A stretch of DNA of 32,145 bases from Candidatus Kaiserbacteria bacterium RIFOXYD1_FULL_42_15 (GCA_001783565.1 MFMT01000042.1:29408-61552); one strand, 5' to 3'. Positions 87 to 32,107 are shown, counted from the first letter of the stretch. Numbers and translations: made by a program. The notes: a model not told the origin generated them from the sequence alone.

Positions 87-170
87 GCGTCGGTGGCAGA
101 GTGGTCAATTGCAACAGACTGTAAATCTGTCGGACATCGTCCTACGAAGGTTCAAATCCTTCCCGGCGCA
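87..170 (+). tRNA. tRNA-Tyr(GTA)
   Basis: Cloverleaf: acceptor GCGTCGG/CCGGCGC, anticodon arm ACAGA-CTGTAAA-TCTGT, long variable arm, T arm GAAGG-TTCAAAT-CCTTC, discriminator A; CCA not encoded. Confidence 0.96.
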
Positions 171-828
171 CAGTAACAAAAATCAGCTCAACTTTTTAGT
201 TGGGCGATTTTTTGTCTGTGCGCCGGGAGTGAGTGATTTAATATCACTCACGTAAGGATTTGAAGCCCGATTGAGCTGGATTATGAGTGAAGCGAAATAA
301 TCCAGCCAATTGGGGTACTGAACATGTAATGTTCAAATCCTTCCCGACGCACCAAATACCAAAACTCAAGCGACAGCTTGAGTTTTGTTGTATTTGGTAG
401 CGCCGGGAAGGATTTGAAAGACGAAGCCGGGGCCCCTCTGGGCCGGCGAGTCGGGGTCGAGCGAATGAGATATTTTGTGAATGAAATGAAACAAAATATC
501 CATGAGAGTGACCAAATCCTTCCCGACGCACGCGTATAAAAATCAGCTCAAGCTTTTGCTTGGGCGATTTTTATTGCGTGCGCCGGGAGCAAGCAAATAG
601 TTTTGCTTGCGTAAGGATTTGAAAGCCACAGCGATGTAGCTTTGCTACGAGCGAGGCGGGTGAGAAGTGATTTGACATCACTTCGCAAGACCTTGCCCGC
701 TATCTTTGAAGCGAAGCGAAAAGTAACGACAAGGTGTACAGAATTCGTAGAATTCGCGAACACTTTGTAGAATTGAACGTAGTGAAAATTATACTTAGTG
801 ATTCGTGTTCAAATCCTTCCCGGCGCAC
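171..828 (+). repeat. Array of tRNA-Tyr 3'-end copies (3 inverted, 3 direct) separated by palindromic modules
   Basis: Inverted copies at about 217-264, 400-418 and 578-623; direct copies (GTT)CAAATCCTTCCCG(A/G)CGCA at 331-354, 513-531 and 807-828. Confidence 0.93.
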
Positions 829-5214: not shown

Positions 5215-5498
5215 GGATTGCCACACTGCGGTTCGCAAAGACGGACGGTGACGTTCATCGTCTTTGCGAGGAGGGAGCCCGCAGGCGAGGGACGTGGCAA
5301 TCCAGGGTGACGGGGCGATGTGGACGGACGATGGCGGGCGTGGATTGCCATGCCTCGCAAAGACGGACGGTGGTGACGGACGTTCTTTGTCTTTGCGAGT
5401 GAGAAAAACATACTATGCTTTTCTCACTCGCAAAGACGCATTGGTGTATATACCAAAAATCAATATAGGTCGTCATTGCGAGCAAAGCGCGGCAATCC
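5215..5498 (+). repeat. Cluster of CGTC-type REP-like palindromic repeats
   Basis: Alternating arms GGATTGCC...TCGCAAAGACG and CGTC(T/A)TTGCGAG...G(T/C)GGCAATCC. Confidence 0.88.
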
Positions 5499-5529
5499 AG
5501 AGTTGGTGTGACGTCACAGATTGCTTCCC

Positions 5530-8466: not shown

Positions 8467-8847
8467 ATGGAAATAAAACCCATTACTTTTGATAGACATG
8501 ACCGAGCGGCTTCTTTAATTAAAGAAATAGTAGCCACCTTCATTCAACAAGAGGCAAATCCCAATCCTCTTATTACCGTAACTCACGTTACTGTTTCTCC
8601 AGATTATCGAAAAGTGACAGTGTTTTTTACCACCATCCCTGACGGTCGCGAAGAAGATGCTTTAATTTTCCTCAAGCGCAGTGCTAATGAGATGCGCGGA
8701 TTTGTGAAGAAAAAAAGTAGTTTAAGAATTATTCCCCACTTGGAATTCTCAATAGACTACGGCGAACGACATCGCCAACACATCGATGAGATTGCCCACG
8801 AGATTGAGCACAGTGATGCCGACACCCCTACAGAACCAACCACCTAG
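8467..8847 (+). CDS. rbfA: Ribosome-binding factor A
   Basis: 'ITVTHVTVSPDYRKVTVFFT' and 'LRIIPHLEFSID'; directly after infB. Confidence 0.92.
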   Translation: MEIKPITFDRHDRAASLIKEIVATFIQQEANPNPLITVTHVTVSPDYRKVTVFFTTIPDGREEDALIFLKRSANEMRGFVKKKSSLRIIPHLEFSIDYGERHRQHIDEIAHEIEHSDADTPTEPTT

Positions 8848-8874
8848 GACATCCGATGTCCTAGGTGGTTGGTT
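8834..8874. repeat. Palindrome with 20-bp perfect arms overlapping the rbfA stop
   Basis: AACCAACCACCTAGGACATC-C-GATGTCCTAGGTGGTTGGTT. Confidence 0.9.
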
Positions 8875-8932
8875 GTACAGCTTGATATCTTTTGTCTATA
8901 GCGACCAAAAATGCTAAAGTAATACGCGACCA

Positions 8933-9005
8933 GTCCTGGTGGCGAAGTGGTTAACGCTACGGTTTGCAAAACCGTCATTCGTGGGTTCGACTCCCACCCA
9001 GGACT
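8933..9005 (+). tRNA. tRNA-Cys(GCA)
   Basis: Acceptor GTCCTGG/CCAGGAC, anticodon arm ACGGT-TTGCAAA-ACCGT, T arm GTGGG-TTCGACT-CCCAC, U discriminator. Confidence 0.96.
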
Positions 9006-9199
9006 CATTTATATAAAAACGTACATTCGTACGTTTTTATATAAATGAGTCCTGGGAGTTGTGTGCCTGCGCACACAACGTTGGGAATCGAACAGCGGAG
9101 TTATGTTTTCTCCTCTTCCCTAGAGGAGAAAACAGACGAGCTGCGTCCAGCGTTCTTATGAGCGTCAGCAAATTAGAAAAAGAGGGACGATTTCCACCA
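8997..9199 (+). repeat. tRNA-Cys 3'-end inverted copy, module and degenerate direct copy
   Basis: Perfect 28-bp inverted repeat 8997-9024/9029-9056; inverted T arm TGGGAATCGAA 9082-9092; degenerate direct copy CGATTTCCACCA 9188-9199. Confidence 0.85.
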
Positions 9200-9245
9200 T
9201 AAAACAGAATCAAATTTGAAGTAAATCTAGAAAGGAGTTCCCCTT

Positions 9246-9329
9246 GCCGGGATGGTGTAATCGGTAGCCACGCAAGACTTAAAATTTTGTGGGCGCAAGC
9301 CCGTGCGGGTTCAAGTCCCGCTCCCGGCA
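9246..9329 (+). tRNA. tRNA-Leu(TAA)
   Basis: Acceptor GCCGGGA/TCCCGGC, anticodon loop CTTAAAA, long variable arm, T arm GCGGG-TTCAAGT-CCCGC. Confidence 0.95.
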
Positions 9330-9675
9330 CAATGTAATAGTACGTCAGATTTTTATCTGGCGTACTATTACATTTGCCCCAGGGACTTGAAGAGGTTGCC
9401 TGCTAGATTATGAGCTAGCGAAATAATCTAGCGACAACCTGTACTGAACTCGTAGAGTTCAAGTCCCGCTCCCGGCACAAATTAAAAACTATCATTCTTG
9501 AGAGTTTTTAATTTGTGCCGGGAAGAAAGCAAACTGCTTTGCTTTCGGGCGGGACTTGAAAGGCGGAGCGACGTGAGTTTACGAACAAGCGAGCCAGGGT
9601 CGTGAGCGATATATTTTTAAGGAGTTCACGACTATAAAAATAATCGACTCCTGACCAAGTCCCGCTCCCGGCACA
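9330..9675 (+). repeat. Array of tRNA-Leu(TAA) 3'-end copies (2 inverted, 2 direct)
   Basis: Inverted 9376-9391 (degenerate) and 9514-9560; direct 9457-9479 and 9656-9675 (CAAGTCCCGCTCCCGGCACA). Confidence 0.92.
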
Positions 9676-9751
9676 AAGTATTATTAAGAATATATAGATA
9701 GGTTGTCTAATTTAAATTTATCTTGTACACTTTGCTCTACCAAATATATAT

Positions 9752-9824
9752 GCGCCCTTAGCTCAGTTGGTAGAGCAGCTCCCTCTTAAGGAGACGGTCC
9801 AAGGTTCGAATCCTTGAGGGCGCA
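9752..9824 (+). tRNA. tRNA-Lys(CTT)
   Basis: Acceptor GCGCCCT/AGGGCGC, D arm GCTC-AGTTGGTA-GAGC, anticodon loop CTCTTAA, T arm CAAGG-TTCGAAT-CCTTG. Confidence 0.95.
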
Positions 9825-10107
9825 CAAAGGTAAAGCAAAAACACTATCATAATATGATAGTGTTTTTGTTTTAAAAACTGAACTGCTTCAGTTTTGTGCC
9901 TGTGTGCGAGACGGAGCGATGTTTTTCTGCCCCCTTAGGCAGGAAAATAAGTGAGTCGGGGTAGCGAGTGCTTAGTAAAATAAAGACAAAGTATTTATTT
10001 TGGTTAGCAACTCGTGACCACACAGATACATCTATGTGCTATACATGACATGATTTTGTGACTAAATGATAATGTGTTACACTCTGTCCACACGATTTTG
10101 TGTATCC

Positions 10108-10189
10108 GCGCGAGTGGCGTAATTGGTAGCCGCGTTAGTCTTAGGAACTAATGGAGCAATCCGTGGAGGTTCAAGTCCTCTCTCGCGCA
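10108..10189 (+). tRNA. tRNA-Leu(TAG)
   Basis: Acceptor GCGCGAG/CTCGCGC, anticodon arm TTAGT-CTTAGGA-ACTAA, variable arm, T arm GGAGG-TTCAAGT-CCTCT. Confidence 0.95.
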
Positions 10190-10339
10190 CAAAAGAAAAA
10201 CCGTCCCGCAAGGGCGGTTTTTTGACTGCGCGAGAAGTAGTGTGTGGGACACACTACGGGAGGACTTGAAGAGGTTGCCAGCTCTTTTGAAAAAAGAGCG
10301 ACAACCTGTACTGAACTCGTAGAGTTCAAGTCCTCTCTC
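10190..10339 (+). repeat. Terminator-like hairpin, then tRNA-Leu(TAG) 3'-end inverted copy, module and direct copy
   Basis: Hairpin 10196-10223; inverted copy 10227-10270; direct copy GTTCAAGTCCTCTCTC 10324-10339. Confidence 0.9.
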
Positions 10340-10362
10340 CACATTTCCTATATAATAAACAA

Positions 10363-10785
10363 ATGGCTCAACAAAATACCCAATTTGATTTCGGTGATGG
10401 AAAGCAACCAACTTCCTCATTCACCCTCTATGAATACATCATTAGTGACCGCGGTAGCCGGTATTCAGCCAGTATTGGTTTTGTCACCGGGCGAGAAGAT
10501 ATAAAAAATTTTCTATCCAAACTAAAGACACTAAAAAAATACGCTAGAGCAGATCATCACAGCTGGGCAGCTCGTCTTTCACATGAGGGTACCATTTACG
10601 AAACCAAAAGTGACGATGGTGAGACTGGTGCCGGCATGGTCATACTCCGGATTATGCAAAAAAGGAACGTCACCAACTGCATCATCTCTGTCACTCGCTG
10701 GTTCGGTGGCATTAAATTAGAAGGAGACCGTTTCAAGCATATTCAAGACGCCACCATCTACGCCATTGACCACCTTGATCAATAG
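10363..10785 (+). CDS. YigZ/IMPACT (UPF0029) family protein
   Basis: 'DRGSRY', 'ADHHSWAAR', 'SDDGETGAG', 'VTRWFGGIKL..DRFKHI'. Confidence 0.88.
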   Translation: MAQQNTQFDFGDGKQPTSSFTLYEYIISDRGSRYSASIGFVTGREDIKNFLSKLKTLKKYARADHHSWAARLSHEGTIYETKSDDGETGAGMVILRIMQKRNVTNCIISVTRWFGGIKLEGDRFKHIQDATIYAIDHLDQ

Positions 10786-10817
10786 ATTTATATCGCGATT
10801 AATCGCGATATAAATCT
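10784..10817. repeat. Perfect 34-bp palindrome overlapping the YigZ-family stop codon
   Basis: AGATTTATATCGCGATT|AATCGCGATATAAATCT. Confidence 0.9.
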
Positions 10818-10849
10818 TGATTCGTTGTTGTCACTTTTTTACAACACCA

Positions 10850-11004
10850 CGTCTTTGCGAGTGAGAAAGTCCAGTGGACTTTCGCAAGACCTTGCCAGCT
10901 CTTTTGTAAAAAGAGCGACAAGGTGTACAGTCCCTGTTAAGGGAAAGCGCGGCAATCCACGTCCATCATCGTGTTCGTCTTCGCGAGTCGCAACGTGGCG
11001 ATCC
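10850..11004 (+). repeat. Two CGTC-type arms, the first carrying an inserted three-hairpin module
   Basis: CGTCTTTGCGAG-[10862-10942]-GAAAGCGCGGCAATCC, then CGTCTTCGCGAGTCGCAACGTGGCGATCC. Confidence 0.85.
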
Positions 11005-11088
11005 ACTTCTTCACCTAAACCACAGCCGAGCGAAATCATAAATTGCTAAAATACCCTACAAAATAAGCCCAGAATACCGTCCTAAAAC

Positions 11089-11117
11089 TTGACTTCTGTC
11101 GTGATTTGTGCTAATAT
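11089..11117 (+). promoter_or_regulatory. Sigma70-type promoter
   Basis: TTGACT, 17 bp, TAATAT with extended TG; overlapping TATAAT at 11115-11120. Confidence 0.6.
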
Positions 11118-11263
11118 AATAGATGGAATGGGCGGGTTGTACCCCACTTCTCCGTAGTCACACGAAAACGTGATGATTACCAGCAAGTTGGGCATCCCGC
11201 TCATAAATGAAACAGTCCGCGGGTGAGAAGCACATGCTTCCCCGCTTTGACATGGAGAGAAAA

Positions 11264-12424
11264 ATGAAACGTGTAATCATTCTGGTGTTGATTCTGGCAT
11301 CTTTCTATATCATCCCGAAGTTCTATATCATCCCGAAGGCAGTAGGGTTTGTGTTGGCATTCACCTTGGGACTCGCTGCTTCTGCAGCAATTCTTTTGGG
11401 TATCGGTGCGTATGCTTCGTTACTATTCAAGAACGTACTCACCCACAACCCAGACAAACCGCACTACTGGCAACTTTTCGTAAAGGTTGACAAAAACCGG
11501 GCAGTTGCCATCAGCCGCGGAGATAGAGAGATTAGGGTTTTGTTTGGAAACCAACCACCCCTACCCTCTGACGCCCTCTGGGGTTTTTGGATGAAGTACA
11601 AGAAGATGGTCATGGAAAAACTTGGTCTCCATGTGATTTTCCCGTACTTCTGGGAACCAAAAACTATCCCTCTTCCTAGGTACAAGATTGACGAGGTCGA
11701 CGGAAAGATAAACTACCGAACCATCAAGAATGGGGAGGAGGGATTCTTTACGAATCACGTTCGTGTCGCCGACGAGGGGACTCCCTGGTACTACATTATA
11801 TCCGGGGCAGACGTCCAGACTATACCAGTGACGACAAAGGAGGTCGTTACCTACCGCATCAAGAAAGACGAACTAAGCGTAATTACTTCGCTCTATGGTG
11901 CTGAAACCTGGAATGTCGTATTGAGCAACGCCATCGGGTCGATGACCAGAAAGGTCCTCAGTCGAGATGCCACGATCGACATGATCGTGGGGTCGATTGG
12001 AAACGAGGTGTGGCCCGTAACTGTCAAGACTTCTTCTTCACAGGATACTGTCTACAGTGCTTTGGCGCAGCAAATTGAGCTTGAGCTCCAGCGCTATAAG
12101 CTCAAGAATGGCAAGAAACTTGCAGACATGGGGATCGAAATCCTCAAAGTGGACATTCTTGACTTCGAGCCCGAACTTACACCAGAAGAAAAACTGAAGC
12201 TCCACTCTGCCGTCCTGGCCATCCAAAATGCCAGGAAGACTGTCATCGAAGGCACGGCTACTGCCAACGCCCAAAAGGCACTGAAAGATGTCCACGCCCT
12301 CGGTGGCGGCGCTTCACCAGAAATCATCATGGCCGATGTCATGAAGAAATTTGCTGACGGAAAGGGTGGGGTGCTTGATCTCATTCTCACCGGCCTCGCA
12401 GCAAACCAACTTAAGGGGAAATAA
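11264..12424 (+). CDS. Membrane protein with probable SPFH/band-7-like domain
   Basis: N-terminal TM helices; 'VTYRI', 'LADMGIEILKVDILDFE' and Ala-rich coiled coil as in SPFH proteins; GGAG SD before ATG 11264. Confidence 0.6.
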   Translation: MKRVIILVLILASFYIIPKFYIIPKAVGFVLAFTLGLAASAAILLGIGAYASLLFKNVLTHNPDKPHYWQLFVKVDKNRAVAISRGDREIRVLFGNQPPLPSDALWGFWMKYKKMVMEKLGLHVIFPYFWEPKTIPLPRYKIDEVDGKINYRTIKNGEEGFFTNHVRVADEGTPWYYIISGADVQTIPVTTKEVVTYRIKKDELSVITSLYGAETWNVVLSNAIGSMTRKVLSRDATIDMIVGSIGNEVWPVTVKTSSSQDTVYSALAQQIELELQRYKLKNGKKLADMGIEILKVDILDFEPELTPEEKLKLHSAVLAIQNARKTVIEGTATANAQKALKDVHALGGGASPEIIMADVMKKFADGKGGVLDLILTGLAANQLKGK

Positions 12425-12425
12425 G

Positions 12426-13226
12426 ATGATGTATCTGTATGCGGTGCTGGCAGGGTTTGCTTCCCTGCTGGTATTGACACCGTCTGTTCTTCTTCTCCTT
12501 TGGTTTTCTTACAAGGTAAAGTCCAAAAGAGCACCCACCCCAGTACCTGTTGGTGTGGCCGGGGCAAGTACGACCACAACCACAACAACACCCGTACCGG
12601 CCAGAAAGGTGTCGACGTGGGTGAAGGCGCTGCTGGCGACAGTGCTGATGATTATATTGTTCTTTTGGGGCGGAGAAATTCTTTCCGCCCTGAAGGGCTG
12701 GGATTGGTCAACCACCAGCACTGGCAAATTCATCGAAGACAACGCCGGCTCCGGCTGGTCAAATCTTCTGTGGCTCTTTCTACTGGTGCCGCTCTACTTT
12801 CTTGTCGGACTTCCCAAAGGTCTGGCGAAGAATGCGGGGACGGTACTGAGCTGGGGAGTGGCCATCATTGGGATGATTGGACTGGTATGGTTCTTCACCC
12901 AAGACCCGCTACGGTGGTGGCATAACGACAATATTGTCAGGGTTGACCTCAACAGGGTCAATTCAGACACTGTGTCGATAAAACCCGACCAGACACTGAT
13001 TATTCTGGTTCGGCAAGCCACAGTCTACGGACGTGACTGCACCGGATACTTCATGCCGGCGCCGAAGTGGCGGGAGATGTATGACATGCATCAACCTGAA
13101 GATGTTCTTATATCATACACCAACCAGGGCCTGACGACCTATGTGTCCATTAAGGAACCCTACCGCACCATGCTACGCGATAGGGGGATGACTATGGACA
13201 TCTGGGTCTACAACCAAGGTTGCTAG
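12426..13226 (+). CDS. Hypothetical multi-pass membrane protein with Thr/Pro-rich linker
   Basis: About 4 hydrophobic segments, poly-Thr run, AGGGG SD overlapping the end of the upstream gene; start moved to ATG 12426. Confidence 0.7.
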   Translation: MMYLYAVLAGFASLLVLTPSVLLLLWFSYKVKSKRAPTPVPVGVAGASTTTTTTTPVPARKVSTWVKALLATVLMIILFFWGGEILSALKGWDWSTTSTGKFIEDNAGSGWSNLLWLFLLVPLYFLVGLPKGLAKNAGTVLSWGVAIIGMIGLVWFFTQDPLRWWHNDNIVRVDLNRVNSDTVSIKPDQTLIILVRQATVYGRDCTGYFMPAPKWREMYDMHQPEDVLISYTNQGLTTYVSIKEPYRTMLRDRGMTMDIWVYNQGC

Positions 13227-13259
13227 TCCCTTCGGTGGCCCGACACAGGACCACCAACA

Positions 13260-13298
13260 CCCCCGGCGGCGCGCAAGCGTTCGGCGGGGGTTTATTTT
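13260..13298 (+). terminator. Intrinsic terminator
   Basis: GC-rich imperfect stem with GCAA loop followed by TTTATTTTT. Confidence 0.7.
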
Positions 13299-13383
13299 TA
13301 TAAAATATGATTCAGAATTTAGCCAGGTTTAACCAAATTAAGGAGATTGCCATAAAGTTTATCACGGGATTAATAATCTCTTT

Positions 13384-13782
13384 CTACTGTGGTCCAGATA
13401 CAGGTGTGGTATATGTTGGGGCGGTAGCCGGAAGTTCAAAAACTCGGTTATTACAACCAGAAGCTGTTGGGTCTTTAGCACAATCTAGGGTGTCCTTCAA
13501 ACCAAAGGTGTTAGCGGCCACGGATAAAATGGCAAAAGCAGTTAGCATCACCAGTAAGCCGATAATGCCCCACATAATATGTTTTTGACCATCGGCACGC
13601 CCAGTCGGATCATTTGAATTAGCAATGTATTGAAAACTGCCGTACATAAAAACTAGTACCGCTACCGCCGTCAGAAGGATGATTAAGGGATAAAGAATAA
13701 CTTCATTGAATTTGGCGACAAAGCTGGTAGCTTCGGTAACACCTGGTACTGACTCAACGGCATAAGCAATATTTGAAAACAT
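13384..13782 (-). CDS. Small membrane 'pilin' (TrbC/VirB2-like CPR family)
   Basis: Two TM helices around 'GSFQYIANSNDPTGRADGQKHIMWGIIGL'. Confidence 0.75.
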   Translation of the reverse strand: MFSNIAYAVESVPGVTEATSFVAKFNEVILYPLIILLTAVAVLVFMYGSFQYIANSNDPTGRADGQKHIMWGIIGLLVMLTAFAILSVAANTFGLKDTLDCAKDPTASGCNNRVFELPATAPTYTTPVSGPQ

Positions 13783-13873
13783 ATGGCTAAATTATAGCAT
13801 CACAACAATCAAAAAACCGCACTGAAGGTGCGGGTTTTTGTCGGTAAAGTATTACCACTATCATCTAAGCAAA

Positions 13874-14257
13874 TTATGGAGTAGGTAAACCGGGTATAGT
13901 TGGTACAGTCGTTTGATCACCACCGATTGAGCCGGTAAGAAAGTTAACGATTCCCCATAAACTAAAAATCAATGCAAAACCGATAATCGAATAGATAATT
14001 AAGTTTCTACCTTCTTTTCTTTTCTCAGGGTCGTCACCGCCAACAATAAACATTTTGAAAATACCCCAAACAAACATCAGAAATCCTGCTGCCAGTAGTA
14101 GGGGCAATAAATAGTTTTTAATGAAAGTAGTGGTTCCAGAAAATGGAGCACCTAACAAGGTAGGATTATTTTCCAAAAGCCCAGCTGCACTAACGGTGGA
14201 TGCACCTGCAATCAATAAAAACATGGCTGAAAAAATAAAGAAATAGACGTTTTTCAT
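13874..14257 (-). CDS. Small membrane 'pilin' (TrbC/VirB2-like CPR family)
   Basis: Signal peptide plus 'WGIFKMFIVGGDDPEKRKEGRNLIIYSIIG'. Confidence 0.8.
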   Translation of the reverse strand: MKNVYFFIFSAMFLLIAGASTVSAAGLLENNPTLLGAPFSGTTTFIKNYLLPLLLAAGFLMFVWGIFKMFIVGGDDPEKRKEGRNLIIYSIIGFALIFSLWGIVNFLTGSIGGDQTTVPTIPGLPTP

Positions 14258-14383
14258 AAAATTAAATTGTTAATACTATTAATGAGTATTAATGGTAATT
14301 ATACATGATAATTTGGGGATTGTATGCTTTCTGGGGTGGGGTGTGTATAAAAAAGCTGGTTACAGAAATGAGTCCTGTGAAGA

Positions 14384-14638
14384 CGTGGATTGCTTCGCGC
14401 GACTCGCAAAGACGTTTCACTTTGTGTTCGTCTTCGCGAGGAGTGGAGTGGCAACGTGAAAAAGTGATTCAATATCACTTTGCAAGACTAGTTGAGCAGG
14501 TTTGTGAGTGAAACGAAACAAACTGGCCAACTAGTGGACAGTCCCTGTAAGGGAATGACGTGGCGATCCAGGGTGGCATGACGAACGATGTGGATTGCCA
14601 CGTTGCGACTCGCCTGTCTGCGCAGGCAGACAAAGACG
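14384..14638 (+). repeat. Composite CGTC-type element with a 96-bp inserted module
   Basis: Colinear and near-identical to 17268-17427 except for extra 14457-14552. Confidence 0.9.
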
Positions 14639-14657
14639 GAGGGGTTGAGACGGTGGG

Positions 14658-14924
14658 TTAAAAAATTGATGCCTTAAGAAAAGAAAGGATGCCCCAAATG
14701 CTGGCCATGATTACCATCACGATGACTGAAGTCAGTGCTATCATCTTACCCTCTTCGCGCTTGGTATCATTATCGGCATGGATAATCCAGGCATCAATAA
14801 TTTTCCACATCATCACAATGAAGGCCAGGGCAAAGATAACCACTATCAGGGAGTTGATGATGTCAACGAAAAAGACGACAAGCTCGGCGAAGGTGGTGGG
14901 CGTGACTGGTGTGGTTGGTGTCAT
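14658..14924 (-). CDS. Small membrane 'pilin'-like protein
   Basis: Two TM helices around 'HADNDTKREEGKMIAL'. Confidence 0.7.
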   Translation of the reverse strand: MTPTTPVTPTTFAELVVFFVDIINSLIVVIFALAFIVMMWKIIDAWIIHADNDTKREEGKMIALTSVIVMVIMASIWGILSFLKASIF

Positions 14925-14926
14925 AA

Positions 14927-15316
14927 CTAGAAACTTTCAACAGTTGATTGAATAATGTCACTAATGGCAACGGCGGCCAAAATCAAAACCCCACCAATAA
15001 TGGCATAAGTGAGGGCACGAGTCGCCTCCCCGACTTTGGTAGAATTACCACGAGCGGTGACGTATTTGAAACCAGCTAAAATAATAAAGAAGACGACGAC
15101 GGGTATCATCAGAATTTCCACGATATTGAGAATGGTCACCAAAAGACCTTCGATAGAACTGACATTTTTAAGAGGGTTTTCTAGGGTAACGGTGTCAATT
15201 TTACTTGTATTCGTCGGAGCAGCTTTGGTAAAAATTGGTAAAAGAAAAAGTAAACCAAGGATTAAATACAAACCGGCATTTTTTCTTATTTTCATTACTT
15301 GACAGTATTTTTTCAT
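14927..15316 (-). CDS. Small membrane 'pilin' (TrbC/VirB2-like CPR family)
   Basis: Signal peptide, 'LENPL', 'AGFKYVTARGNSTKVGEATRALTYAIIG'. Confidence 0.8.
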   Translation of the reverse strand: MKKYCQVMKIRKNAGLYLILGLLFLLPIFTKAAPTNTSKIDTVTLENPLKNVSSIEGLLVTILNIVEILMIPVVVFFIILAGFKYVTARGNSTKVGEATRALTYAIIGGVLILAAVAISDIIQSTVESF

Positions 15317-15324
15317 ATAAAGTA

Positions 15325-16626
15325 TTAATACACTTCCCTCAACCTCCCCACCGCATCATTAGCGGCTTCCCCGGGGCGGTGGCGGTTGGCGAGGACGTCC
15401 TCGACCATTTGGGTAAAGATGTCATTGGTAATGGTCGGCTTGGGACTGAGCCAACCACGCGCCACCGTGGCCGAACTGTAGATAATTCTACCATATTGGT
15501 CGTTACTACCGGTTGAGAGTGAAGAGCGATAAGTTGGTGCCATCTGCAAAGCATTAGCCAATGCCTCCACATTGGCCACACTGCCTAATTCCTGCATGAC
15601 AATCTGCGCGCCAGCACTATTACGAGATGATCGGAGAAGAGCATAGCCATAAAAGGTGCCGTAGGTTCGTCTGATGGTGGCTATAGCTCCCTGTGGTACC
15701 TCGGCCATGGCAAAATTAAGATTGGGATTTTGGGTTGCCAAACTGCTGGCTTCACTTCCTTTGCCAAAATACAGAACCAAGTCCTCACTCAAAAACTGCA
15801 GGCGGTCATTCGGCTGGGCTCGATTCCAACTATAAAGAGGGTTGCTCGGACTAGCAAAATTAGTATAGAAGGTCACGGCCGATTCAAAGGGTTGACCTGC
15901 CCCACTTCTAGATTGATTGAGATAAAGTTTGTAAGTGTCATTTTCCTCCATCACCAGCTTACTACCGCCTTGTAACAACAACATGGAAATGATCCCAAAA
16001 CCGTTGGTGACGTTGCGGTATTCACCAAAGGCCAGAGGACTGCGGATAATAGTTTTGTCAAAGTCGCGCTTAACTAAGGTCGGTACCGTTTCGTTTACCA
16101 CTGTTTCCCAAGTAGCAGGCGGAGTAATAAAATTGTAGGTGCTAAGAATATCACGATTCCAATACATCACCAGCGGATCAACTACGGCTGGAAAAGCATA
16201 GACGCCATCATTCATGGCAAAAATCTCTGTCCCATCAATGTAGCGGTTCTGAAAATCCGGTAACGGAAATTGGGTGTAGGAAAACGGCTGTATTTTTGTC
16301 CGATACTGAACTAATTGTTCATGTGATAAAAATAAAATGTCTGGACCAATTCCGTCAGCCAAGGCATTGAGTAATTCATCATCGAAGGTGCTGGGATCTT
16401 TTTGTTCATAACTAACCACACTATAAGCGGGAGTGGCTTCAACTAATGGGCGCAACATTTGCTGAAAAGCGTTTTTATCAACGGTGCCCCAAATAGTAAC
16501 TGAACTTCCCAGTGAGACAGCGGTGGTGTCGGGATTTGGTTTGTAGGTTGATAAAAGAGCCAAAGCAATCAAGCCCAAAGCACCAAAAATGGCAATCAAA
16601 GCTAATTCAAAAGGACGTAATTTCAT
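15325..16626 (-). CDS. Membrane-anchored extracellular solute-binding protein (sugar-type family)
   Basis: N-terminal TM, 'VTIWG', 'ALADGIGPDI', 'YAFPAVVDPLVMYWNRDIL', 'PPATWE'. Confidence 0.85.
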   Translation of the reverse strand: MKLRPFELALIAIFGALGLIALALLSTYKPNPDTTAVSLGSSVTIWGTVDKNAFQQMLRPLVEATPAYSVVSYEQKDPSTFDDELLNALADGIGPDILFLSHEQLVQYRTKIQPFSYTQFPLPDFQNRYIDGTEIFAMNDGVYAFPAVVDPLVMYWNRDILSTYNFITPPATWETVVNETVPTLVKRDFDKTIIRSPLAFGEYRNVTNGFGIISMLLLQGGSKLVMEENDTYKLYLNQSRSGAGQPFESAVTFYTNFASPSNPLYSWNRAQPNDRLQFLSEDLVLYFGKGSEASSLATQNPNLNFAMAEVPQGAIATIRRTYGTFYGYALLRSSRNSAGAQIVMQELGSVANVEALANALQMAPTYRSSLSTGSNDQYGRIIYSSATVARGWLSPKPTITNDIFTQMVEDVLANRHRPGEAANDAVGRLREVY

Positions 16627-17171
16627 AATTTTCTAAAAGCTAAACCATAATGATGGTCTCCAGCTGGGTACTCACGCTCCAACATAAAACCATGTGATTC
16701 AAATAAAGCAATAGCGGCGAGTTTGGTAATCACACTGGCCGGAGCGGGGCCAAGACCAGCAAAAGATTCAGTCCAATCAATGACATGTAATACTCCTCCC
16801 TGACGCAAAGTGCGACCCATTTCAATCACAGCCGTGTCTTTATCTTCAAGCTGAAATAAGGTGTTAACTAAAATACCAGCATCCAACGAGTCATCGGCGA
16901 TTTTGATTCCACCGGCCACTTCAAGATCACACCATAAGGGATTAACATTTTGAAAGCCCTTTGAGCGGGCAAAGTTACCAAGTTTTTCTACCAATGGTCG
17001 CTGAATTTCACAAGCGAAAACTTTACCGGTCTGACCGACTGCTGAGGATAGGATAGGAATGAAGAAACCGCCACCGGCGCCAAAGTCTGCCACCTTATCA
17101 CCCTCTTCCAGTAAAAAATGTGTGCCGACCACTTCCGGCATCACAAACCGTCCCAAGGTTGGTAAATTCAT
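16623..17171 (-). CDS. Class I SAM-dependent methyltransferase
   Basis: 'VADFGAGGG' motif I, 'LRQGGVLHVIDW', 'HHYG'; start placed at ATG 17171 behind TATACT. Confidence 0.85.
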   Translation of the reverse strand: MNLPTLGRFVMPEVVGTHFLLEEGDKVADFGAGGGFFIPILSSAVGQTGKVFACEIQRPLVEKLGNFARSKGFQNVNPLWCDLEVAGGIKIADDSLDAGILVNTLFQLEDKDTAVIEMGRTLRQGGVLHVIDWTESFAGLGPAPASVITKLAAIALFESHGFMLEREYPAGDHHYGLAFRKL

Positions 17172-17267
17172 TATCAATAGTATACCGCAAGGAAGTTAAA
17201 AAAAGTGTCGGTGGGGTGTAGAGAACCTGTTTATCCTTAAGACAAACGGTTACGTAACGGACGCAAA

Positions 17268-17427
17268 CGTGGATTGCTTCGTTGCGACTCGCAAAGACGT
17301 TTCACTTTGTGTTCGTCTTCGCGAGGAGCGGAGTGGCAACGGAGTGACGTGGCGATCCAGGGTGGCATGACGAACGATTTGGATTGCCACGTTGCGACTC
17401 GCCTGTCTGCGCAGGCAGGCAAAGACG
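17268..17427 (+). repeat. Composite CGTC-type element (empty form)
   Basis: Three arms; near-identical to 14384-14638 without the insert. Confidence 0.9.
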
Positions 17428-17468
17428 AAACTTTTCCATCTTCAATCTTCTCTATTTTTGTTTTCTCT

Positions 17469-19940
17469 CTAGACAAACACGATACTGGCAATAGAGTCGC
17501 CGGCTCGCATCTTCATTACTCGCACACCCTGTGTCTGACGGCCAAGAGTCGGCACGTCCTTGAGAGGTAATTTAATCACCTGCCCTTTCTTGCTCATAAT
17601 TACCAATTCTCCTTCTGTTCTATCCTCGCCACCAATCACTACTCCGCCGACAATCAGGCCGGTCTTGTCAGTGACTTTGGCAGTTTTGATACCAGAGCCA
17701 CCACGTTTTTGCACTTTGTACTCCTTTACTGGAGTGGTCTTACCATAACCATGTTCGGTCACAATCAAGATTTCAAAATCCTTAGAATCTTTTTTAATAA
17801 CATCAGCCGAGACTATTAAATCTCCCTTACCGAGTTTCATGGCGGCCACACCGGCAGCGGTGCGTCCCATTTCTCGGACATCGCTTTCTTTAAATCGTAT
17901 CGCTTGACCCTTGTGTGTAACTAAGGAAACCTCATCCCCTTTACCAACAAATTTGGCGGCTATCAAAGCATCGTCTTCGCGCAAGGTAATAGCAATCAGT
18001 CCGCTACGACGCACATCTTTGAAGGCAGAAGCATCAGACTTTTTGGCTACCCCATTTTTGGTAACCATCATCAAGCTCCACTGCCCTTCCCAAGCTTCTT
18101 TGCGAACCGCCAGGACTGAAGTCACCCGTTCTTCGGCTGACATTGAAAGGAAGTTCATGATCGACTTGCCTTTGGTGGCGCGACGACCCTCTGGTATCTC
18201 GTACATCTTGCTCTGATAGACCTTACCATTATCGGTAAAGAATAGAAGGTCACTGTGAGCCGAAGTAGTAAGCAGTGTCGTCACCACGTCTTCTTCCTTG
18301 GTATTCAAGTCAATTACGCCCACTCCGCCACGCTTTTGGGTTTTGTATTCTTCGGGGTTAGTACGCTTGACGTAACCGCCAGCAGTGAGCACTAAGACGC
18401 TTTCGTCGTCCGGTATCAAGTCTTCTTGACTCATCATTTTGACACCACCCTTGACGATTTTGGTACGACGGTCATCGCCATATTTTTCAGCAATCTCCAT
18501 CAATTCGCTTTTGACCAAGGCCAGCATCTTTGCCTTACTCTTTAGAATTGCTTCCAGTTCCTTGATAAGTTTTTGAACCTCAGTCAGTTCATCTTCTATT
18601 TTCTTACGCTCGAGTCCAGCCAACTTTTGCAGACGCATGTCGAGAATGGCCTGGGCCTGAATACTGGAGAACTTGAATTCTTTCATCAAAGCAGCGTGGG
18701 CTGTCGGTACATCTTTGGCAGCTCGAATAAGCTTGATGATTTGGTCGATATGATCAAGGGCTTTTTTCAGGCCAAGTAAAATATGCTCGCGATCCTGGGC
18801 TTTGGTGAGGTCGTACTGAGTACGACGACGGACGACGTTGGACCGATGCTTCACATATTCTTCTAAGATAACCTTGAGTGACACTGTCTGCGGTACGCCG
18901 TCAACCAAAGCCACCATGTTGTAGTGGAAGGTGTCCTCCAGTTGAGTATGTTTGTATAATTTATTTAAAACGGTTTGTGGTTGGGCACCAGTTTTGAGAT
19001 CAATCACTACCCGAATGTCATTGGTAGACTCGTCACGCATTTCACGAATACCCTCAATCTTTTTGTCGCGCACCAAATCAGCAATCTTTTCCTGCATGTC
19101 GGCCTTGTTCACCCGAAATGGAATCGAAGTAATAATGATAGAGAAAGCCCCTTTTTTGTCCTCAACAATCTCAGCTTCACCACGCACTACCACCCCACCA
19201 CGACCATAGGTATAGGCATGGGTAATATCTTTTTGATTAAAGGCCACCGCACCAAGTGGAAAGTCTGGACCTTTAACAAATTTCAACAAGTCCTCTGTAG
19301 TGGCTCCTGGATTATCAATCAAATATTCAATCGCCACTGATAATTCGCGCAAATTGTGGGGTGGAATATTGGTTGCCATTCCCACTGCAATACCCAATGT
19401 ACCCATGAGGAGTAAATTTGGTACTGCTGCTGGTAAAACCACTGGCTCTTTTTTGGTACCATCAAAGTTGGGGCGCCAATCAACTGTGTCCTTTTCCAAA
19501 TCACGGAGCATTTCTTCTGCTAAGCGCGACATCTTGGCCTCAGTGTATCGATAGGCAGCCGCCGAGTCACCGTCAATTGAACCGAAGTTTCCTTGACCAA
19601 GAACAAGTGGGTAACGGGTAGCAAATGGCTGAGCCAACTTTACCATTGATTCGTACACTGCCGAGTCACCATGAGGATGAAAGCTACCAAGCACATCTCC
19701 CACTACCGTCGCTGATTTTTTGAACTTTGCACTCGCTGTTAAACCATTAAGACGCATCGAGTAGAGGATGCGACGGTGTACTGGCTTCAGCCCATCGCGA
19801 ATATCCGGCAAGGCACGCGAAGTAATGACCGACATCGCGTAGTCAAGGTAGGAAGTTTCCATTTCACCCGTGATACTTTGGGTGATAATTCCTCGTTGTG
19901 GAGCTGGAGTGGTATCATCTGGAATGGTCTTTTTCGGCAT
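17469..19940 (-). CDS. gyrA: DNA gyrase subunit A
   Basis: [21 protein letters not shown], 'AAAYRYTE' active-site region, GyrA box QKRGG; probable ATG at 19940. Confidence 0.96.
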
Positions 19941-20047
19941 AACAGAAAACAAGAAATTTAATAATAATCTTCATATTATAGCATACTTGAGCTATGGTAC
20001 AGTGGTTTTTAAGAGTCCAACCACCAACCCTCTTACAAATCATAAAG

Positions 20048-20341
20048 TTTCAAATTTTGAGCGAAAAAGAATTAGATAGTTTGAGGAAGCATATAGATAT
20101 ATATTGATGAAAAATAACTAATTTGTAGCCAAATATTTGGAATCTTTTGGTGGCATACGGGGTTATTGGATGGGTTCTAAATAATACCATCCCCAATTAA
20201 CGCTTGGACATAAACGCCTTTCAAAATTTTGAGCGAAAAGCAAGCTGGAGTCCGAAGCATATTGGTATATGTTGAGGGCGAAGCGCGGTTTTGTAGCCAA
20301 AATTTGGGATTGCGTGTCCAATGGTTAATTGGAGATGGTAT
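20048..20341 (+). repeat. Two degenerate copies of a structured motif, the second enclosed by an inverted copy of the neighbouring gene's 3' end
   Basis: TTTCAAA(A)TTTTGAGCGAAAA...GAAGCATAT...TTTGTAGCCAAA at 20048-20142 and 20219-20310; 20184-20210 pairs with 20315-20341. Confidence 0.7.
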
Positions 20342-20798
20342 AAGGTAATCGCGATTCACTATTCACGGTTTCTCGTGGCTTAGTGGTCGTGCCAATCTGA
20401 ATGGTTTTAGTGGTGGTAGATTTGGCATTCATATTCGTTGAAGAACTAATCCTAATTTCAATCGGTGATTGATTCTGTTCTTCCCCTGATGATTTGGAGA
20501 CAGTAGTTGAGGTGGCAACGGAAGCAGAGAGGGTAGTGCTGGCAGATTGCCACACATTGGCCACAGATTTTTTTGCGCCCTCAAATTGGTTTTTTATTTG
20601 AGTTAAAAAACCAGAAAATGGAGCCGCCCCGACCGCTTCACTCTCCACCCCGCCAGAGATGTTTGAAAAACTTGCTGGTAAAGATACCAACCAAACCACT
20701 ACCAAAATAGCGGTAAAAACAAAAGCACTGCCAAAAGCATATCGCTCACGCACATGTTTTGGTTTTGTTCTTATTTTGTCTAGGGTTTCGAAGAACAT
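20325..20798 (-). CDS. Hypothetical single-pass membrane protein
   Basis: 'LDKIRTKPKHVRERYAF' then a TM helix and a Ser/Thr-rich tail. Confidence 0.7.
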   Translation of the reverse strand: MFFETLDKIRTKPKHVRERYAFGSAFVFTAILVVVWLVSLPASFSNISGGVESEAVGAAPFSGFLTQIKNQFEGAKKSVANVWQSASTTLSASVATSTTVSKSSGEEQNQSPIEIRISSSTNMNAKSTTTKTIQIGTTTKPRETVNSESRLPYTISN

Positions 20799-20827
20799 AT
20801 TTTAATAAGCAACCCTGCGGGTAGTAG

Positions 20828-21448
20828 CTAGACGGAGAGGACAACGACATCACCCTCCATAACAACTACATCACGTTTCTTGATTGTCAGTTTATCGACT
20901 GGTTTAACGGTCTCTGCCCCCACCTCTTTCAAAAAGGTATTCAATGATGTTTTATCATAGTGCATCGGCAAAATAAGTCTTGCCTCCAACTTGGTTGCCA
21001 GCTTGGCAGCGGCTGGTACATCCAAAACATCTCCGCCACCAATCGGTACAAATAATATATCAATATCGCCTAACTCACCAAGAATTTTTGGGTCAATTTC
21101 CGCATCGCCAAGAGCCCCTAAAAACACTAAATTCATTTCTTCCAGACGTACCTGATAAATAGTATTGAAGTGCTCCACATTTTCATAAGTGGTTTTTACA
21201 CCAAAACCACGGACCGTCACTTCACCAATTTCATATTCGCCAGGACCCGACACTACAAATGGTTGCTTGTTGCCAAGGGCTACTTGGCTAGAACCGTTGA
21301 AGTTTGGATGGTTAAGTGAAATAAAGGCCACATCTGAACCAAACTTTACTGATGTTAATTTAGATTCCTTCGCAATCGGATCAAAAGCCAGAGTGGTGTT
21401 ACCAAACGATACCTTAAAACATTGCCCACCGTGATATGTAATAACCAT
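20828..21448 (-). CDS. Metallo-beta-lactamase-fold protein (degenerate metal site)
   Basis: 'ITYHGGQCFKV', 'GPGEYEIG', 'DIDILFVPIGG', 'LPMHY'; start placed at ATG 21448. Confidence 0.85.
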   Translation of the reverse strand: MVITYHGGQCFKVSFGNTTLAFDPIAKESKLTSVKFGSDVAFISLNHPNFNGSSQVALGNKQPFVVSGPGEYEIGEVTVRGFGVKTTYENVEHFNTIYQVRLEEMNLVFLGALGDAEIDPKILGELGDIDILFVPIGGGDVLDVPAAAKLATKLEARLILPMHYDKTSLNTFLKEVGAETVKPVDKLTIKKRDVVVMEGDVVVLSV

Positions 21449-21561
21449 AATGACAGTAGTATACAAGAAGAGAGCGGAAATAGAAAATAGAATATGGAAA
21501 ATAGTTGAATAGTTTAATAGTTACAGTTGCATGGTTGTATGGTTGCAATTAATGCAACGTT

Positions 21562-21710
21562 GTCTTCGCGAGGAGCGAGCGCACGAGTGACGTGGCGATC
21601 CAGGGTGGCGACGATGACGAACGGTGTGGATTGCCGCGCTGTGGCTCGCCTGTCTGCCATGCCTGCCCTGCATACGCAGGCATGGCATGCAGGGCAGGCA
21701 GGCAAAGACG
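21562..21710 (+). repeat. CGTC-type element with expanded internal palindrome
   Basis: GTCTTCGCGAG...GACGTGGCGATCC and GGATTGCC...CTCG-[54 nt]-CAAAGACG. Confidence 0.85.
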
Positions 21711-21742
21711 TGACTTTCCCATATTCAATATTCTATTTTCCC

Positions 21743-21771
21743 TTGCCATTTTTCATTTTCTTTGTTATATT
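21743..21771 (+). promoter_or_regulatory. rpsA promoter
   Basis: TTGCCA, 17 bp, TATATT with extended TG. Confidence 0.55.
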
Positions 21772-21920
21772 TTTCCCACTTCGTAAGAAGATTATTAGTT
21801 TCTAGCGACACACGTTTAACCCCGCACTCACGGACAATGGCCGGTAGAAAAATTCAAAGAATTTTTCTACCTCGCGAAATGGTTGTGCGGACGCGTGTCG
21901 TCGGAAGTAAACATATATAT

Positions 21921-23039: not shown

Positions 23040-23050
23040 CAGTAAATAAA

Positions 23051-23085
23051 CAAAAAGACACGGGATCATGCTCGTGTCTTTTTTG
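23051..23085. terminator. Bidirectional terminator between rpsA and pth
   Basis: AAAAAGACACGGG-ATCATG-CTCGTGTCTTTTTT. Confidence 0.75.
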
Positions 23086-23164
23086 TTATCAATCTGCGAG
23101 GTCAGACCCCACAGATTGGGTGATGTTGTGGCGAAAGGTAAAAAACTTAAGGGTAGGGCTTTTT

Positions 23165-23761: not shown

Positions 23762-23931
23762 CCAAAAATCATACCACAGCGGAAGTCATTTAGACCAATT
23801 TATCGGTAATTAAAAATAAATCACAAACAAAAACCATTCAGAGTCACTTAAATTCAGTCATAGTAAATTACTAAAATCGCAAAATTTGCGAAGCTGATTT
23901 TTATCGCGTATAATACAATTACTTCACCACT

Positions 23932-24582: not shown

Positions 24583-24593
24583 TTAAAATCAGT

Positions 24594-25766: not shown

Positions 25767-25823
25767 GGCATTCGTGTTTATTAATTGCTCCACATTATTT
25801 AAGTAGATGATATCTAGACTTCT

Positions 25824-26602
25824 GGATTGCCTGCCTGCACATGTATAACACCTAACGAGCCAGCAGGTGGGCTTCATGACGACTTGCAAAAACGGTAGTC
25901 TTCGTCATTGCGAGAAGGGTGACCGCAGTCTAATGACGTGGCAAATCCATGACCGTACAGAAACGTGGATTGCTTCGTTGTGACTCGCAAAGACGGGTAC
26001 GAAGAACGACACCCCACCATCGTCTTTGCGAGGAATGAGCTGGCAAGCAAATGACGTGGCAATCCACACCATCACCGTCTTTGAGGAGGGAGCTGGCAAG
26101 CGTGAAAAAGTGACTCAATGTTGTGTAAAATAATAAGCGTAGCGACTATATTTTTCATACATAGAATTTTTTATCCTTAATAAAAATTCTTGCACTTTGC
26201 AGCCAACTTGAGCTGGTTTGTACCCACCTTTAGCTGCGAGCAAAGCGTGGCAGGAAATAAAATAGCCAATGAGTGGACAGTCCCTGTTAAGGTGAGAAAT
26301 GTCTGGGTGAGAAAGTCCAGTGGACTTTCTCAAGAGGTTGCCTACTATTTTGCAAAAATAGCGTCAACCTGAACAGCTTCTGTATAGAAGACATTTCGCA
26401 GCCACATTGAGCTAGTTTTACCCACCTTTAGCTGCGAGCGAAGCGTGGCAGGAAATAAAGTAGCCAATGAGTGGACAGTCCCTGTTAAGGTGAGAAAAGC
26501 ATGGGATGCTTTTCGCAAGACTCATTGAGGGATTTTGTGAGTGCAACTAAACAAAATACCCAATGAGTGGACAGTCCCTGTAAGGGAGCAACGTGGTGAT
26601 CC
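25824..26602 (+). repeat. Large composite CGTC-type repeat cluster with tandem and nested modules
   Basis: Multiple CGTC arms; about 100-bp direct repeat 26195-26299/26395-26498; CAATGAGTGGACAGTCCCTGT three times. Confidence 0.92.
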
Positions 26603-26780
26603 AGGATAATTACTGAGTGTATTGTTTCTTGAAACCTTTAGCTACCTCTTAAACGAAAGGTGGTTTTTGGGGTGGGGTACTAGGAAGTTTCTTTGGCCCA
26701 GAAATAGTCAAGAATTAATTAGTATGGGTAATTTGTTACCTTGCACTTTTTCTTCAGGAATGCTATGCTCTTGCCCACAT

Positions 26781-27026: not shown

Positions 27027-27038
27027 AATAAAATAGGC

Positions 27039-27070
27039 AGATAACCCCACTCACATGAGTGGGGTTATCT
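27039..27070 (+). terminator. Strong hairpin after rpsU
   Basis: AGATAACCCCACTCA-CA-TGAGTGGGGTTATCT followed by T-rich bases. Confidence 0.7.
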
Positions 27071-31864: not shown

Positions 31865-31951
31865 GGAAGAGTCGCATAGTGGTCTAGTGCACCGGTTTCG
31901 AAAACCGGCATCGGGGAAACTCGATCGAGGGTTCAAATCCCTCCTCTTCCG
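31865..31951 (+). tRNA. tRNA-Ser(CGA)
   Basis: Acceptor GGAAGAG/CTCTTCC, anticodon arm CCGGT-TTCGAAA-ACCGG, long variable arm, T arm GAGGG-TTCAAAT-CCCTC, G discriminator. Confidence 0.96.
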
Positions 31952-32107
31952 CAGTGAATGAAATGAACGAAGGAAGAGGAGGTTGCAGCATTTTGAAAAA
32001 ATGCGTAGCAAGATTTGAAGCCCGATTGAGCTAGATTATGAGCTTGCGAAATAATCTAGCCAATTGGGGTACTGAACATGTAATGTTCAAATCCCTCCTC
32101 TTCCGCA
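31952..32107 (+). repeat. tRNA-Ser 3'-end inverted copy, module and direct copy
   Basis: Interrupted inverted copy 31972-32019; module 32020-32084; direct copy GTTCAAATCCCTCCTCTTCCGCA 32085-32107. Confidence 0.92.

Follow-up and report, generated by a model that had tools for sequence, protein, structure and literature searches.

A discrete DNA module of about 70-105 nt, which consists almost wholly of hairpins, was identified in many copies in the genome of Candidatus Kaiserbacteria bacterium RIFOXYD1_FULL_42_15. Its ends are exact, it occupies its sites without a target duplication, its helices covary, two bases of its last hairpin are complementary to the two bases that follow it, and its spread is genus-wide. 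The module is very probably a mobile DNA element of some kind. The preferred reading, to which a probability of roughly 0.55 is given, is a family of small non-autonomous mobile elements, which are moved in trans as a folded single strand and follow a G|NN guide rule.

According to this reading, the element would insert between a G and a dinucleotide NN, with no target base duplicated or deleted, and NN would be able to pair with the two bases that open the 5′ strand of the last hairpin, P4. Targets would be REP-like repeats, hairpin loops in other modules and tRNA T loops (G53|T54T55, guide AA). The element probably moves as a folded single strand, and a trans-acting HUH Y1 enzyme (the IS200 TnpA or a RAYT-like paralog) may cut and rejoin this strand.

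The window, i.e., the whole analyzed stretch of 32,145 nt, is part of contig C42 of a draft genome of 757 kb (G000; 43 contigs, 41.7% G+C, 84% complete), the size of which suggests a bacterium of the candidate-phyla-radiation type. The public runs with window sequence are groundwater and aquifer metagenomes. Of the 101 genomes searched in the genus, 96 have matches to a covariance model (R1) built from 25 copies. Their number ranges from 1 to at least 41 per genome, and full-length matches score 80-100 bits. A BLAST search with one copy resulted in matches in 6 of the 17 genera of the order, its own genus included. When viral contigs were scanned for exact words, one scan gave 0 places and another one 15, of which R1 recognized none as a module. 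The genomes of the relatives comprise 0.5-1.7 Mb, mostly 0.6-1.2 Mb. In these small and supposedly streamlined genomes, a structured and very probably mobile module would thus be present in dozens of copies. Full-text searches of the openly accessible literature revealed no description of elements of this kind.

Filled and empty sites and the ends of the module

The first-pass annotation had proposed that 14384-14638 and 17268-17427 are the filled and the empty form of one site, and the comparison revealed an exact insert of 96 bases (Table 1). In the filled form, the left flank ...GGAGTGGCAACG is followed by the insert TGAAAAAG...CCCTGTAAGG (14457-14552) and then by GAATGACGTGG..., while the empty form reads ...GGAGTGGCAACG|GAGTGACGTGG... 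from 17330, with the junction at 17341|17342. The left flank is 98% identical to 17284-17341 over 58 nt (repeat family D19) and the right flank 96% identical to 17338-17427 over 90 nt (repeat family D2). The junction is ambiguous by one base, as both the left flank and the insert end with a G.

For the second pair, the proposed insertion was found as an insert of 81 nt between TTGCGAG and GAAAGCGCGGCAATCC, and the empty form TTGCGAG|CAAAGCGCGGCAATCC is located in a paralogous unit at 5470-5499. The proposed empty position 5471 had to be corrected, as it is the start of the repeat unit and the junction lies at 5482|5483. This pair is paralogous and shows a G/C difference at the first flank base. 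Five more copies of the module at 10862-10942 are present elsewhere in the genome with at least 98% identity.

The 40 nt on either side of each module were searched separately against the genome, and places where the two flanks abut were kept. This way, two pairs were found beyond those already proposed, giving four filled/empty pairs in total. One has its empty site in the window, with GCGAG|GAATGAGC at the junction. The other one is a nested pair, in which contig C5 is empty (...ATGTCTGGG|AGACATTTCGCAAG..., likewise C9) and contig C28 is filled (...ATGTCTGGG, then the insert TGAGAAAG...CTTCTGTATAGA at C28:13208-13288, then AGACATTTCGCAAG...). The 34 and 40 flank bases are 100% identical between C28 and C5, the insert has 81 nt, and zero target bases are duplicated or lost, which bears out the claimed lack of a target duplication over 74 identical flank bases. 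Insert ends and flanks share no base, so the junctions are unambiguous, and it is the cleanest filled/empty pair. The module at 26308..26388 in the window belongs to the same type of event.

The nested site lies in the P1 hairpin loop of another module. Since an intact P1 is a family-wide rule, this pair represents an insertion rather than a deletion that gave rise to the empty form. Ragged ends, or short forms that are deletions, had been named as counter-evidence beforehand. Neither was found, as an interrupted P1 cannot be ancestral to the normal, intact one and as the constant ends across copies show that the ends are not ragged.

The module ends read 5′-TGAGAA...YTGTA(A/T)AGR-3′, and TGAGAA... 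and ...CTGTAAGG are not inverted repeats of each other. A regular expression for the full module gave 46 matches in G000 (41 distinct), all of which start with TGA(G/A)(G/A)A and 45 of which are preceded by a G. The claimed insertion after a G also holds in other genomes (25 loci), where a G precedes 26/26 modules and GG 21/26, and in G007 for 10 of 13 modules. The proposed module grammar is likewise reflected in the sequence: the pattern GCAAGA-N20-50-GKACAG occurs four times in the window compared with 0.16 expected occurrences, and none of 100 shuffles reached four. The same exact ends were found in REP-like units (at two positions), P1 loops, an hp1 loop of a tRNA unit in G004 and tRNA T loops as well as in unique intergenic DNA (G007 and 25 other loci).

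In species-level relatives, the flanking genes are 65-72% identical to those of G000 and the intergenic DNA is not alignable. Public contigs from four groundwater runs, compared with 8801-28800, all end at repeats and none spans a module, so that neither a circular junction nor an empty allele at the strain level was seen in them. Contig joints listed at modules were rejected as alleles, as they are paralogous copies which cross-map.

Table 1. Modules, their parts, empty sites and tRNA-linked units in the window
Feature	Position	Strand	Remarks
tRNA-type unit 1 after tRNA-Tyr	151..331	+	Replacement 3′ end T54 to A73, P4 AACAT GTA ATG|TT
Module, P4 = AATTC GTA GAA|TT	661..752	+	Within third unit of array downstream of tRNA-Tyr
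Paralogous empty site of pair 2, TTGCGAG|CAAAGCG	5482..5483	+	Read directly
tRNA-type unit after tRNA-Leu(taa)	9310..9457	+	Second unit, type B, follows to about 9685
tRNA-type unit after tRNA-Leu(tag)	10170..10324	+	Distal tRNA copy truncated
Module, 81 nt, ACCTTG/CAAGGT subfamily	10862..10942	+	Within REP-like unit (GCGAG|...|GAAAGCG); filled site of pair 2
Module, 96 nt	14457..14552	+	Filled site of pair 1; ssDNA fold -20.6 kcal/mol, z -5.9
P1 hairpin, TGAAAA...TTTGCA	14457-14484	+	Part of module 14457..14552
Linker AG	14485-14486	+	Part of module 14457..14552
P2 stem ACTAGTTG/CAACTAGT around P3 hairpin	14487-14535	+	Part of module 14457..14552
Linker GGACAG	14536-14541	+	Part of module 14457..14552
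P4 5′ strand TCCCT	14542-14546	+	Loop GTA follows
P4 own 3′ strand AGG	14550-14552	+	Part of module 14457..14552
Target bases GA completing P4	14553..14554	+	Pair with TC at 14542-14543; also at empty site 17342-17343
Empty site of pair 1, GGCAACG|GAGTGACG	17341..17342	+	96-98% identical copy of host repeat
Empty site GCGAG|GAATGAGC	26032..26033	+	Filled counterpart: contig C17, module ~27052-27147
Module, 81 nt, AGGTTG/CAACCT subfamily	26308..26388	+	In P1 loop of host module (GGG|...|AGACATT)
Module, ACTCAT/ATGAGT subfamily	26491..26585	+	Directly after end of preceding module (AAGG|TGAGAA)
tRNA-type unit after tRNA-Ser(cga)	31932..32085	+	Distal copy and inverted arm match own tRNA

Hairpins and the two-base target

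The helices were determined in an alignment of 25 copies using RNAalifold and pair counting. Three covarying hairpins were found, namely P1, P2 enclosing P3, and P4 at the right end. P1 starts at base 1, where TGAGAA pairs with TTYGCA, and conserved linkers connect P1 with P2 (AG) and P2 with P4 (GKACAG). The P4 loop is GTA, or GTTA/GTAT. In this alignment 96.5% of the cells are paired, and both sides are changed in 17 of 21 pairs. Doubly changed cells amount to 122 compared with 35.6 ± 5.9 in shuffles, none of 500 being as high, and their number falls to 8-31 with slid partner columns. All four covarying middle stems quoted in the first-pass annotation are present. Near-identical P2/P3 segments were found with different P1 and P4 hairpins, which indicates that hairpins are exchanged between copies and that these are mosaics.

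The P4 stem comprises 5 bp, of which three are the module's own (e.g., CCT/AGG) and two are formed between element and target across the right junction. In the module at 14457..14552, P4 reads TCCCT-GTA-AGG|GA (14542-14554), so that the proposed completion of the terminal hairpin by target bases is directly visible. Pairing between the first two bases of the right flank and the first two bases of P4 was found in 28 of 29 parsed copies. Counted as distinct contexts, 22 of 23 obey it compared with 4.5 ± 1.9 in 5000 shuffles, the maximum of which was 12. The script parsed 29 of the 41 modules, and 10 of the 12 unparsed ones have the GTTA loop, which it does not accept. The sole exception is a tandem, in which a second module sits between the first one and its original flank. 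Each of the four empty sites already contains one copy of the dinucleotide, which is thus part of the target rather than of the element.

The guide dinucleotide differs between subfamilies, with TC at G|GA, TT at G|AA, CT at G|AG, CA at G|TG and AA at G|TT. In one REP-like host, the TC (G|GA) and TT (G|AA) subfamilies occupy different positions. In G004, a short module in the hp1 hairpin loop of a tRNA unit (GGG|AG) follows the same rule. A contiguous 5-mer target, for which the guide would also read the left flank, was rejected, as the left flank is G whatever the last three bases of the element are.

In the tandem composites C10:14515-14720, C22:10517-10690 and C41 ~1633-1732 (minus), the downstream module starts with C or A in place of T. 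This change keeps the upstream P4 fully paired at the cost of the first pair of the downstream P1. It needs either a later compensation or a mechanism outside the proposed one, and is counted against the preferred reading.

For the known families, no such rule is described, in which two target bases complete a hairpin without duplication and without a shared core. The element would be a compact, naturally occurring case of DNA structure that programs the choice of a target. If the guide is truly instructive, a change of two bases would retarget the element.

Units at tRNA genes

In the T loops of tRNA genes, longer variants, referred to as tRNA-type units, are located at G53|T54 and bring a substitute for the tRNA 3′ end. 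In the 1.5 kb downstream of 15 of the 37 tRNA genes of G000 (about 40%), the 3′ end of the respective gene is repeated one to three times, counted with up to 3 mismatches in 19 nt. On contig C1 of G007, 9 of 29 tRNA genes are occupied, mostly other tRNAs than in G000. The units have a size of 130-300 nt and were found in the window at 87-828, 9246-9685, 10108-10335 and 31865-32107.

Each unit starts with the tRNA 3′ end from T54. A terminator-like hairpin, an inverted complementary copy of that 3′ end, the body and the next tRNA 3′ end follow in this order. The inverted arm is often split by a hairpin, as in the unit at 151..331 (hairpin hp1), after which the tRNA-Tyr array continues with two more units to about 828. 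The type-A body consists of P2/P3, GTACTG and then P4, which takes the forms AACAT-GTA-ATG|TT, AACTC-GTA-GAG|TT and AAACT-GTA-AGT|TT. All 8 type-A units, inspected by eye, read AA...|TT with the guide AA pairing T54 and T55. The terminal hairpin of these units is therefore completed by target bases as had been claimed, whereas the GAAC/GTTC pairing given for it is better read as AACAT-GTA-ATG|TT. The apparent G53 of the distal copy is the last base of the element, and the module start G|TGAGAA resembles G53|TTCGAA. In type B units, the body ends with ...YGTGACC|GAATCC, and the distal copy is GACC and not GTTC.

As the P4 grammar of type A equals that of the module, the tRNA form and the short module belong to one family. 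Judged from the sequence, P1 would have become a long palindrome in the tRNA form, and its 5′ strand would replace the tRNA 3′ end. The long P1 of this variant carries the copy of the tRNA 3′ end together with a terminator-like hairpin, and the gene which it interrupts thereby remains intact. This would be a way for a tiny element without a gene to occupy essential tRNA genes. Many stray fragments of tRNA 3′ ends, a possible source of confusion in annotation, are also explained by the units.

The tRNA-Ser(cga) unit was found in G000, G044, G009 and G053 but not in G018, and its distal copy and inverted arm match the own tRNA in each species. The exact reverse complement of the own tRNA 3′ end in each tRNA-type unit is left unexplained by the preferred reading and is counted against it.

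Candidate enzymes, known systems and alternative explanations

Five matches to Y1_Tnp (HUH Y1) were identified in G000, i.e., one IS200 TnpA (130.6 bits) and four RAYT-like paralogs (28.9-63.3 bits to NF047646), which are the only multi-copy protein family of mobile type in this genome. G000 also encodes two IS110-family proteins and one Xer-like tyrosine recombinase, none of which adjoins a module, while no match to a reverse transcriptase, a serine recombinase or a TnpB-type protein was found in it. A search for Y2 (IS91) gave no match in G000 and none for its positive controls either.

The RAYT-like genes are located at C7:5960-6628, C11:7510-8181, C23:30997-31626 and C41:39486-40181. Three of them have a perfect palindrome on both sides, and the C11 gene has a pair of 19-nt inverted repeats. 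Each flanking repeat family recurs in the genome with 12-18 strand-hits, including a member of the C7 family at 8843-8871 of the window. The palindrome families differ among the four genes, and none of them is the module.

Tyrosine, serine and IS110 recombinases need shared core bases. Junctions without a duplication and without a shared base are in line with an HUH enzyme which cleaves single strands independently, and they argue against DDE, tyrosine, serine and IS110 enzymes. Across 101 genomes, the module count correlates with the Y1 count (Spearman 0.47, p = 8e-7, uncorrected for relatedness or general repeat load), with a median of 8 modules in the 37 genomes without Y1 and of 16.5 in the 64 genomes with Y1. 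Exceptions exist in both directions, as six genomes without a Y1 match hold 14-37 modules (37 in G048) and four genomes with 4-10 Y1 matches hold at most 10. At 14 Y1/IS110 loci, no R1 match adjoins the genes, the only hit being one of 27.8 bits about 270 nt from a Y1 gene of G002. An autonomous parent was rejected, since the surroundings of the Y1, IS110 and integrase genes contain no module ends. Four IS200-type loci have only one DNA stretch in common, which comprises 52 nt and is shared by two of them. No bias to the lagging-strand template was detected on contig C1 of G007, where 14 of 26 R1 hits, tRNA-linked copies included, lie on the strand predicted from a GC-skew turn at about 395 kb. 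In G000, the orientation relative to replication and gene strand shows a mixed pattern on short contigs.

HUH Y1 proteins of the IS200 or RAYT-like type are the best enzyme candidates. The assignment itself, an HUH Y1 enzyme acting on single-stranded DNA, is tentative and stands at slightly below even odds. The module offers a concrete substrate for testing the role of RAYT-like Y1 proteins.

According to an account of IS608 (PMC5027513), this element inserts without duplication 3′ of TTAC, which is recognized by the guide AAAG through guide-to-target pairing, and the left end of IS200/IS605 elements is always located 3′ of an element-specific tetra- or pentanucleotide. The module resembles IS200/IS605 elements and PATEs in lacking terminal inverted repeats, in having hairpins at both ends (P1 and P4, by covariation), in lacking a target duplication, in its strand-specific structure and in the presence of Y1 HUH genes in the genome. 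In contrast to them, its hairpins are terminal and not subterminal, its left flank is only G or GG and no tetra- or pentanucleotide, and neither a replication-orientation bias nor an autonomous parent with the same ends was found. IS200/IS605 elements recognize their cleavage site or target by pairing with an internal guide located 5′ of the hairpin foot. The two-base complementarity of the module may serve target recognition in a similar way, but in contrast to IS608 its paired target bases are on the right flank, in a stem crossed by the junction. Thus, the link to IS200/IS605 HUH chemistry drawn by the first-pass annotation fits the junctions without shared bases, the five Y1 genes and the module-Y1 correlation and keeps its conditional standing, whereas the left flank, the position of the paired bases, the lack of a module beside any Y1 gene and the lack of a lagging-strand bias do not agree with it. 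The module behaves like a single-strand HUH element of the IS200/IS605 type but lacks several defining features of this family, of which it is not a demonstrated member.

With REP, BIME and REPIN sequences and their RAYTs, the module shares the character of short extragenic hairpin repeats in many copies, the four RAYT-like genes, and a left end (GGTGA... tail plus hairpin) resembling the layout of the REP flanking the RAYT-like gene of C41. It differs from them as a three-hairpin composite with defined junctions, which does not flank any RAYT-like gene and which inserts into another REP-like family without being that family. The tRNA-linked units are similar to tRNA-gene islands and prophages in the duplication of the tRNA 3′ end from T loop to discriminator, with the element supplying the functional end, and in the tandem arrays at one tRNA. 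They are unlike these in their size of 130-300 nt, the lack of an integrase, the inverted copy of the tRNA end and the occupation of 15 of 37 tRNA genes. It is possible, though rather doubtful, that all this amounts to an undescribed class of guide-bearing single-strand mini-transposons, of which one branch is specialized on tRNA G53|T54T55 and colonizes essential single-copy tRNA genes harmlessly by means of its spare 3′ end and terminator.

The strong covariation of three helices and the retention of the family in 96 of 101 genomes would also be expected if the module mainly served as the gene or a cis-element of a small structured RNA (e.g., tRNA-minihelix-like) and its multiplication were secondary. 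G-U cells exceed A-C cells on the given strand (about 24 compared with about 6, counted by hand), and the flanking arms of the tRNA units would fold into a helix like that of acceptor and T stem, with the discriminator base at its end. This explanation is nevertheless unlikely. Only tRNAs reach the Rfam gathering score in the window, nothing credible was found at E-values up to 1-10 in 1-900 and 14380-14640, and a ribozyme or riboswitch identity was rejected for lack of an Rfam match. Moreover, both strands fold equally well as DNA (the complementary strand of 14457-14552 nearly as well as the given one), the P1 of tRNA units is terminator-like and lies ahead of the remainder of the unit, P1, P2/P3 and P4 are shuffled between copies, and copies nest in each other's loops and in REP-like repeats, which would destroy the host RNA. 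The shuffling shows recombination among copies and would suit an immobile module, whose forms arise by deletion, slippage or gene conversion among REP-like repeats. The host repeat family is huge (172 strand-hits of the word CGTCWTYGCGAG), and many copies sit at the same host position, so that part of the copy number may be due to a joint spread of repeat and module. This explanation is hardly credible, as the same exact ends occur in unrelated contexts, flanking direct repeats that could drive a precise deletion are missing, the guide-flank complementarity is left without explanation and the nested filled/empty pair largely refutes it.

Among recombinases, a tyrosine recombinase could act on a folded hairpin site (P4 or the P1 palindrome of the tRNA units) by one-strand exchange, as XerCD does for CTX-phi and integrases for attC sites. 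The layout after such an integration resembles that of the tRNA units, which show 3′ end, loop, inverted complement, body and 3′ end in the expected order, with a long imperfect palindrome, a bulged hairpin and G|TT at both junctions. In addition, the terminal stem obtains its 3′ strand from the downstream neighbor, as in attC arrays, and small units form arrays behind one entry site. However, this route is quite unlikely. An integron integrase and genes within the units are missing. For attC sites, R/L boxes with a G|TT crossover at both junctions would be expected, while G|TT junctions occur only in tRNA-type units and the right junctions of the REP type (G|GA, G|AA, G|AG) share no core. The single tyrosine recombinase of G000 is Xer-like and not beside any module. 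Tyrosine recombinases need an identical overlap, and the nested insertion has no base common to donor junction and target. Recombinases of the RNA-guided or DEDD (IS110-type) kind are very unlikely as the mover, and so is an enzyme which these genomes do not encode and which comes from a phage or a host cell. The two IS110-family genes of G000 and the module-rich genomes without any Y1 match speak for it, but IS110 matches are present in only 4 of 41 relatives and absent from the module-rich G001, G018 and G024, the IS110 count shows no relation to the module count (Spearman 0.03, 25 genomes), no core dinucleotide is shared at the junctions, and R1 recognized no module among the exact-word places on viral contigs.

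Several other repeats were observed in the window and elsewhere in G000. The abundant REP-like repeat CGTCWTYGCGAG ... GGCRATCC, with its inverse, gives 172 strand-hits in 757 kb and is the commonest host of the module. It flanks no RAYT-like gene and was found in the window at 5252-5304, 17265-17427, 25896-26080 and 30299-30465. Another REP-like unit (TACCCRCCTTTAGCTGCGAGCRAAGCGYGGCAGGAAA) is located in the P3 loop of several modules (26213-26256 and 26412-26455 as well as on C10, C32, C38 and C28), which indicates that REP-like and module families insert into each other. A small insert of about 75 nt with its own hairpin, TTGTGTAAAATAAT...ATAAAAATTCTTG, is present at 26120-26196 and also on C28, C41 and C42:24050-24130. 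It lies in P1 hairpin loops after ...AATG and looks like a second nested family with a site rule of its own.

The word GTGAATGAA was found in P3 loops and in the palindrome loop of the tRNA-Ser unit (466-502 and 31953-31970 in the window), and it is also the conserved 5′ tail (GGTGAATGAAGTCC...) of the REP family flanking the RAYT-like gene of C41. It may be a shared recognition word for a protein, or a chance similarity.

Finally, a MITE of 159 nt was identified at 20181-20339. It has terminal inverted repeats of about 25 nt (ACCATCCCCAATTAAC... / ...GTTAATTGGAGATGGT) and ATAA on both sides. Like DDE-derived MITEs, the module is small, non-coding and multi-copy, but in contrast to this MITE it has neither terminal inverted repeats nor a target duplication. 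Contigs of the public runs X1, X3 and X7 join 20180 to 20340, and the MITE may therefore vary within the population.
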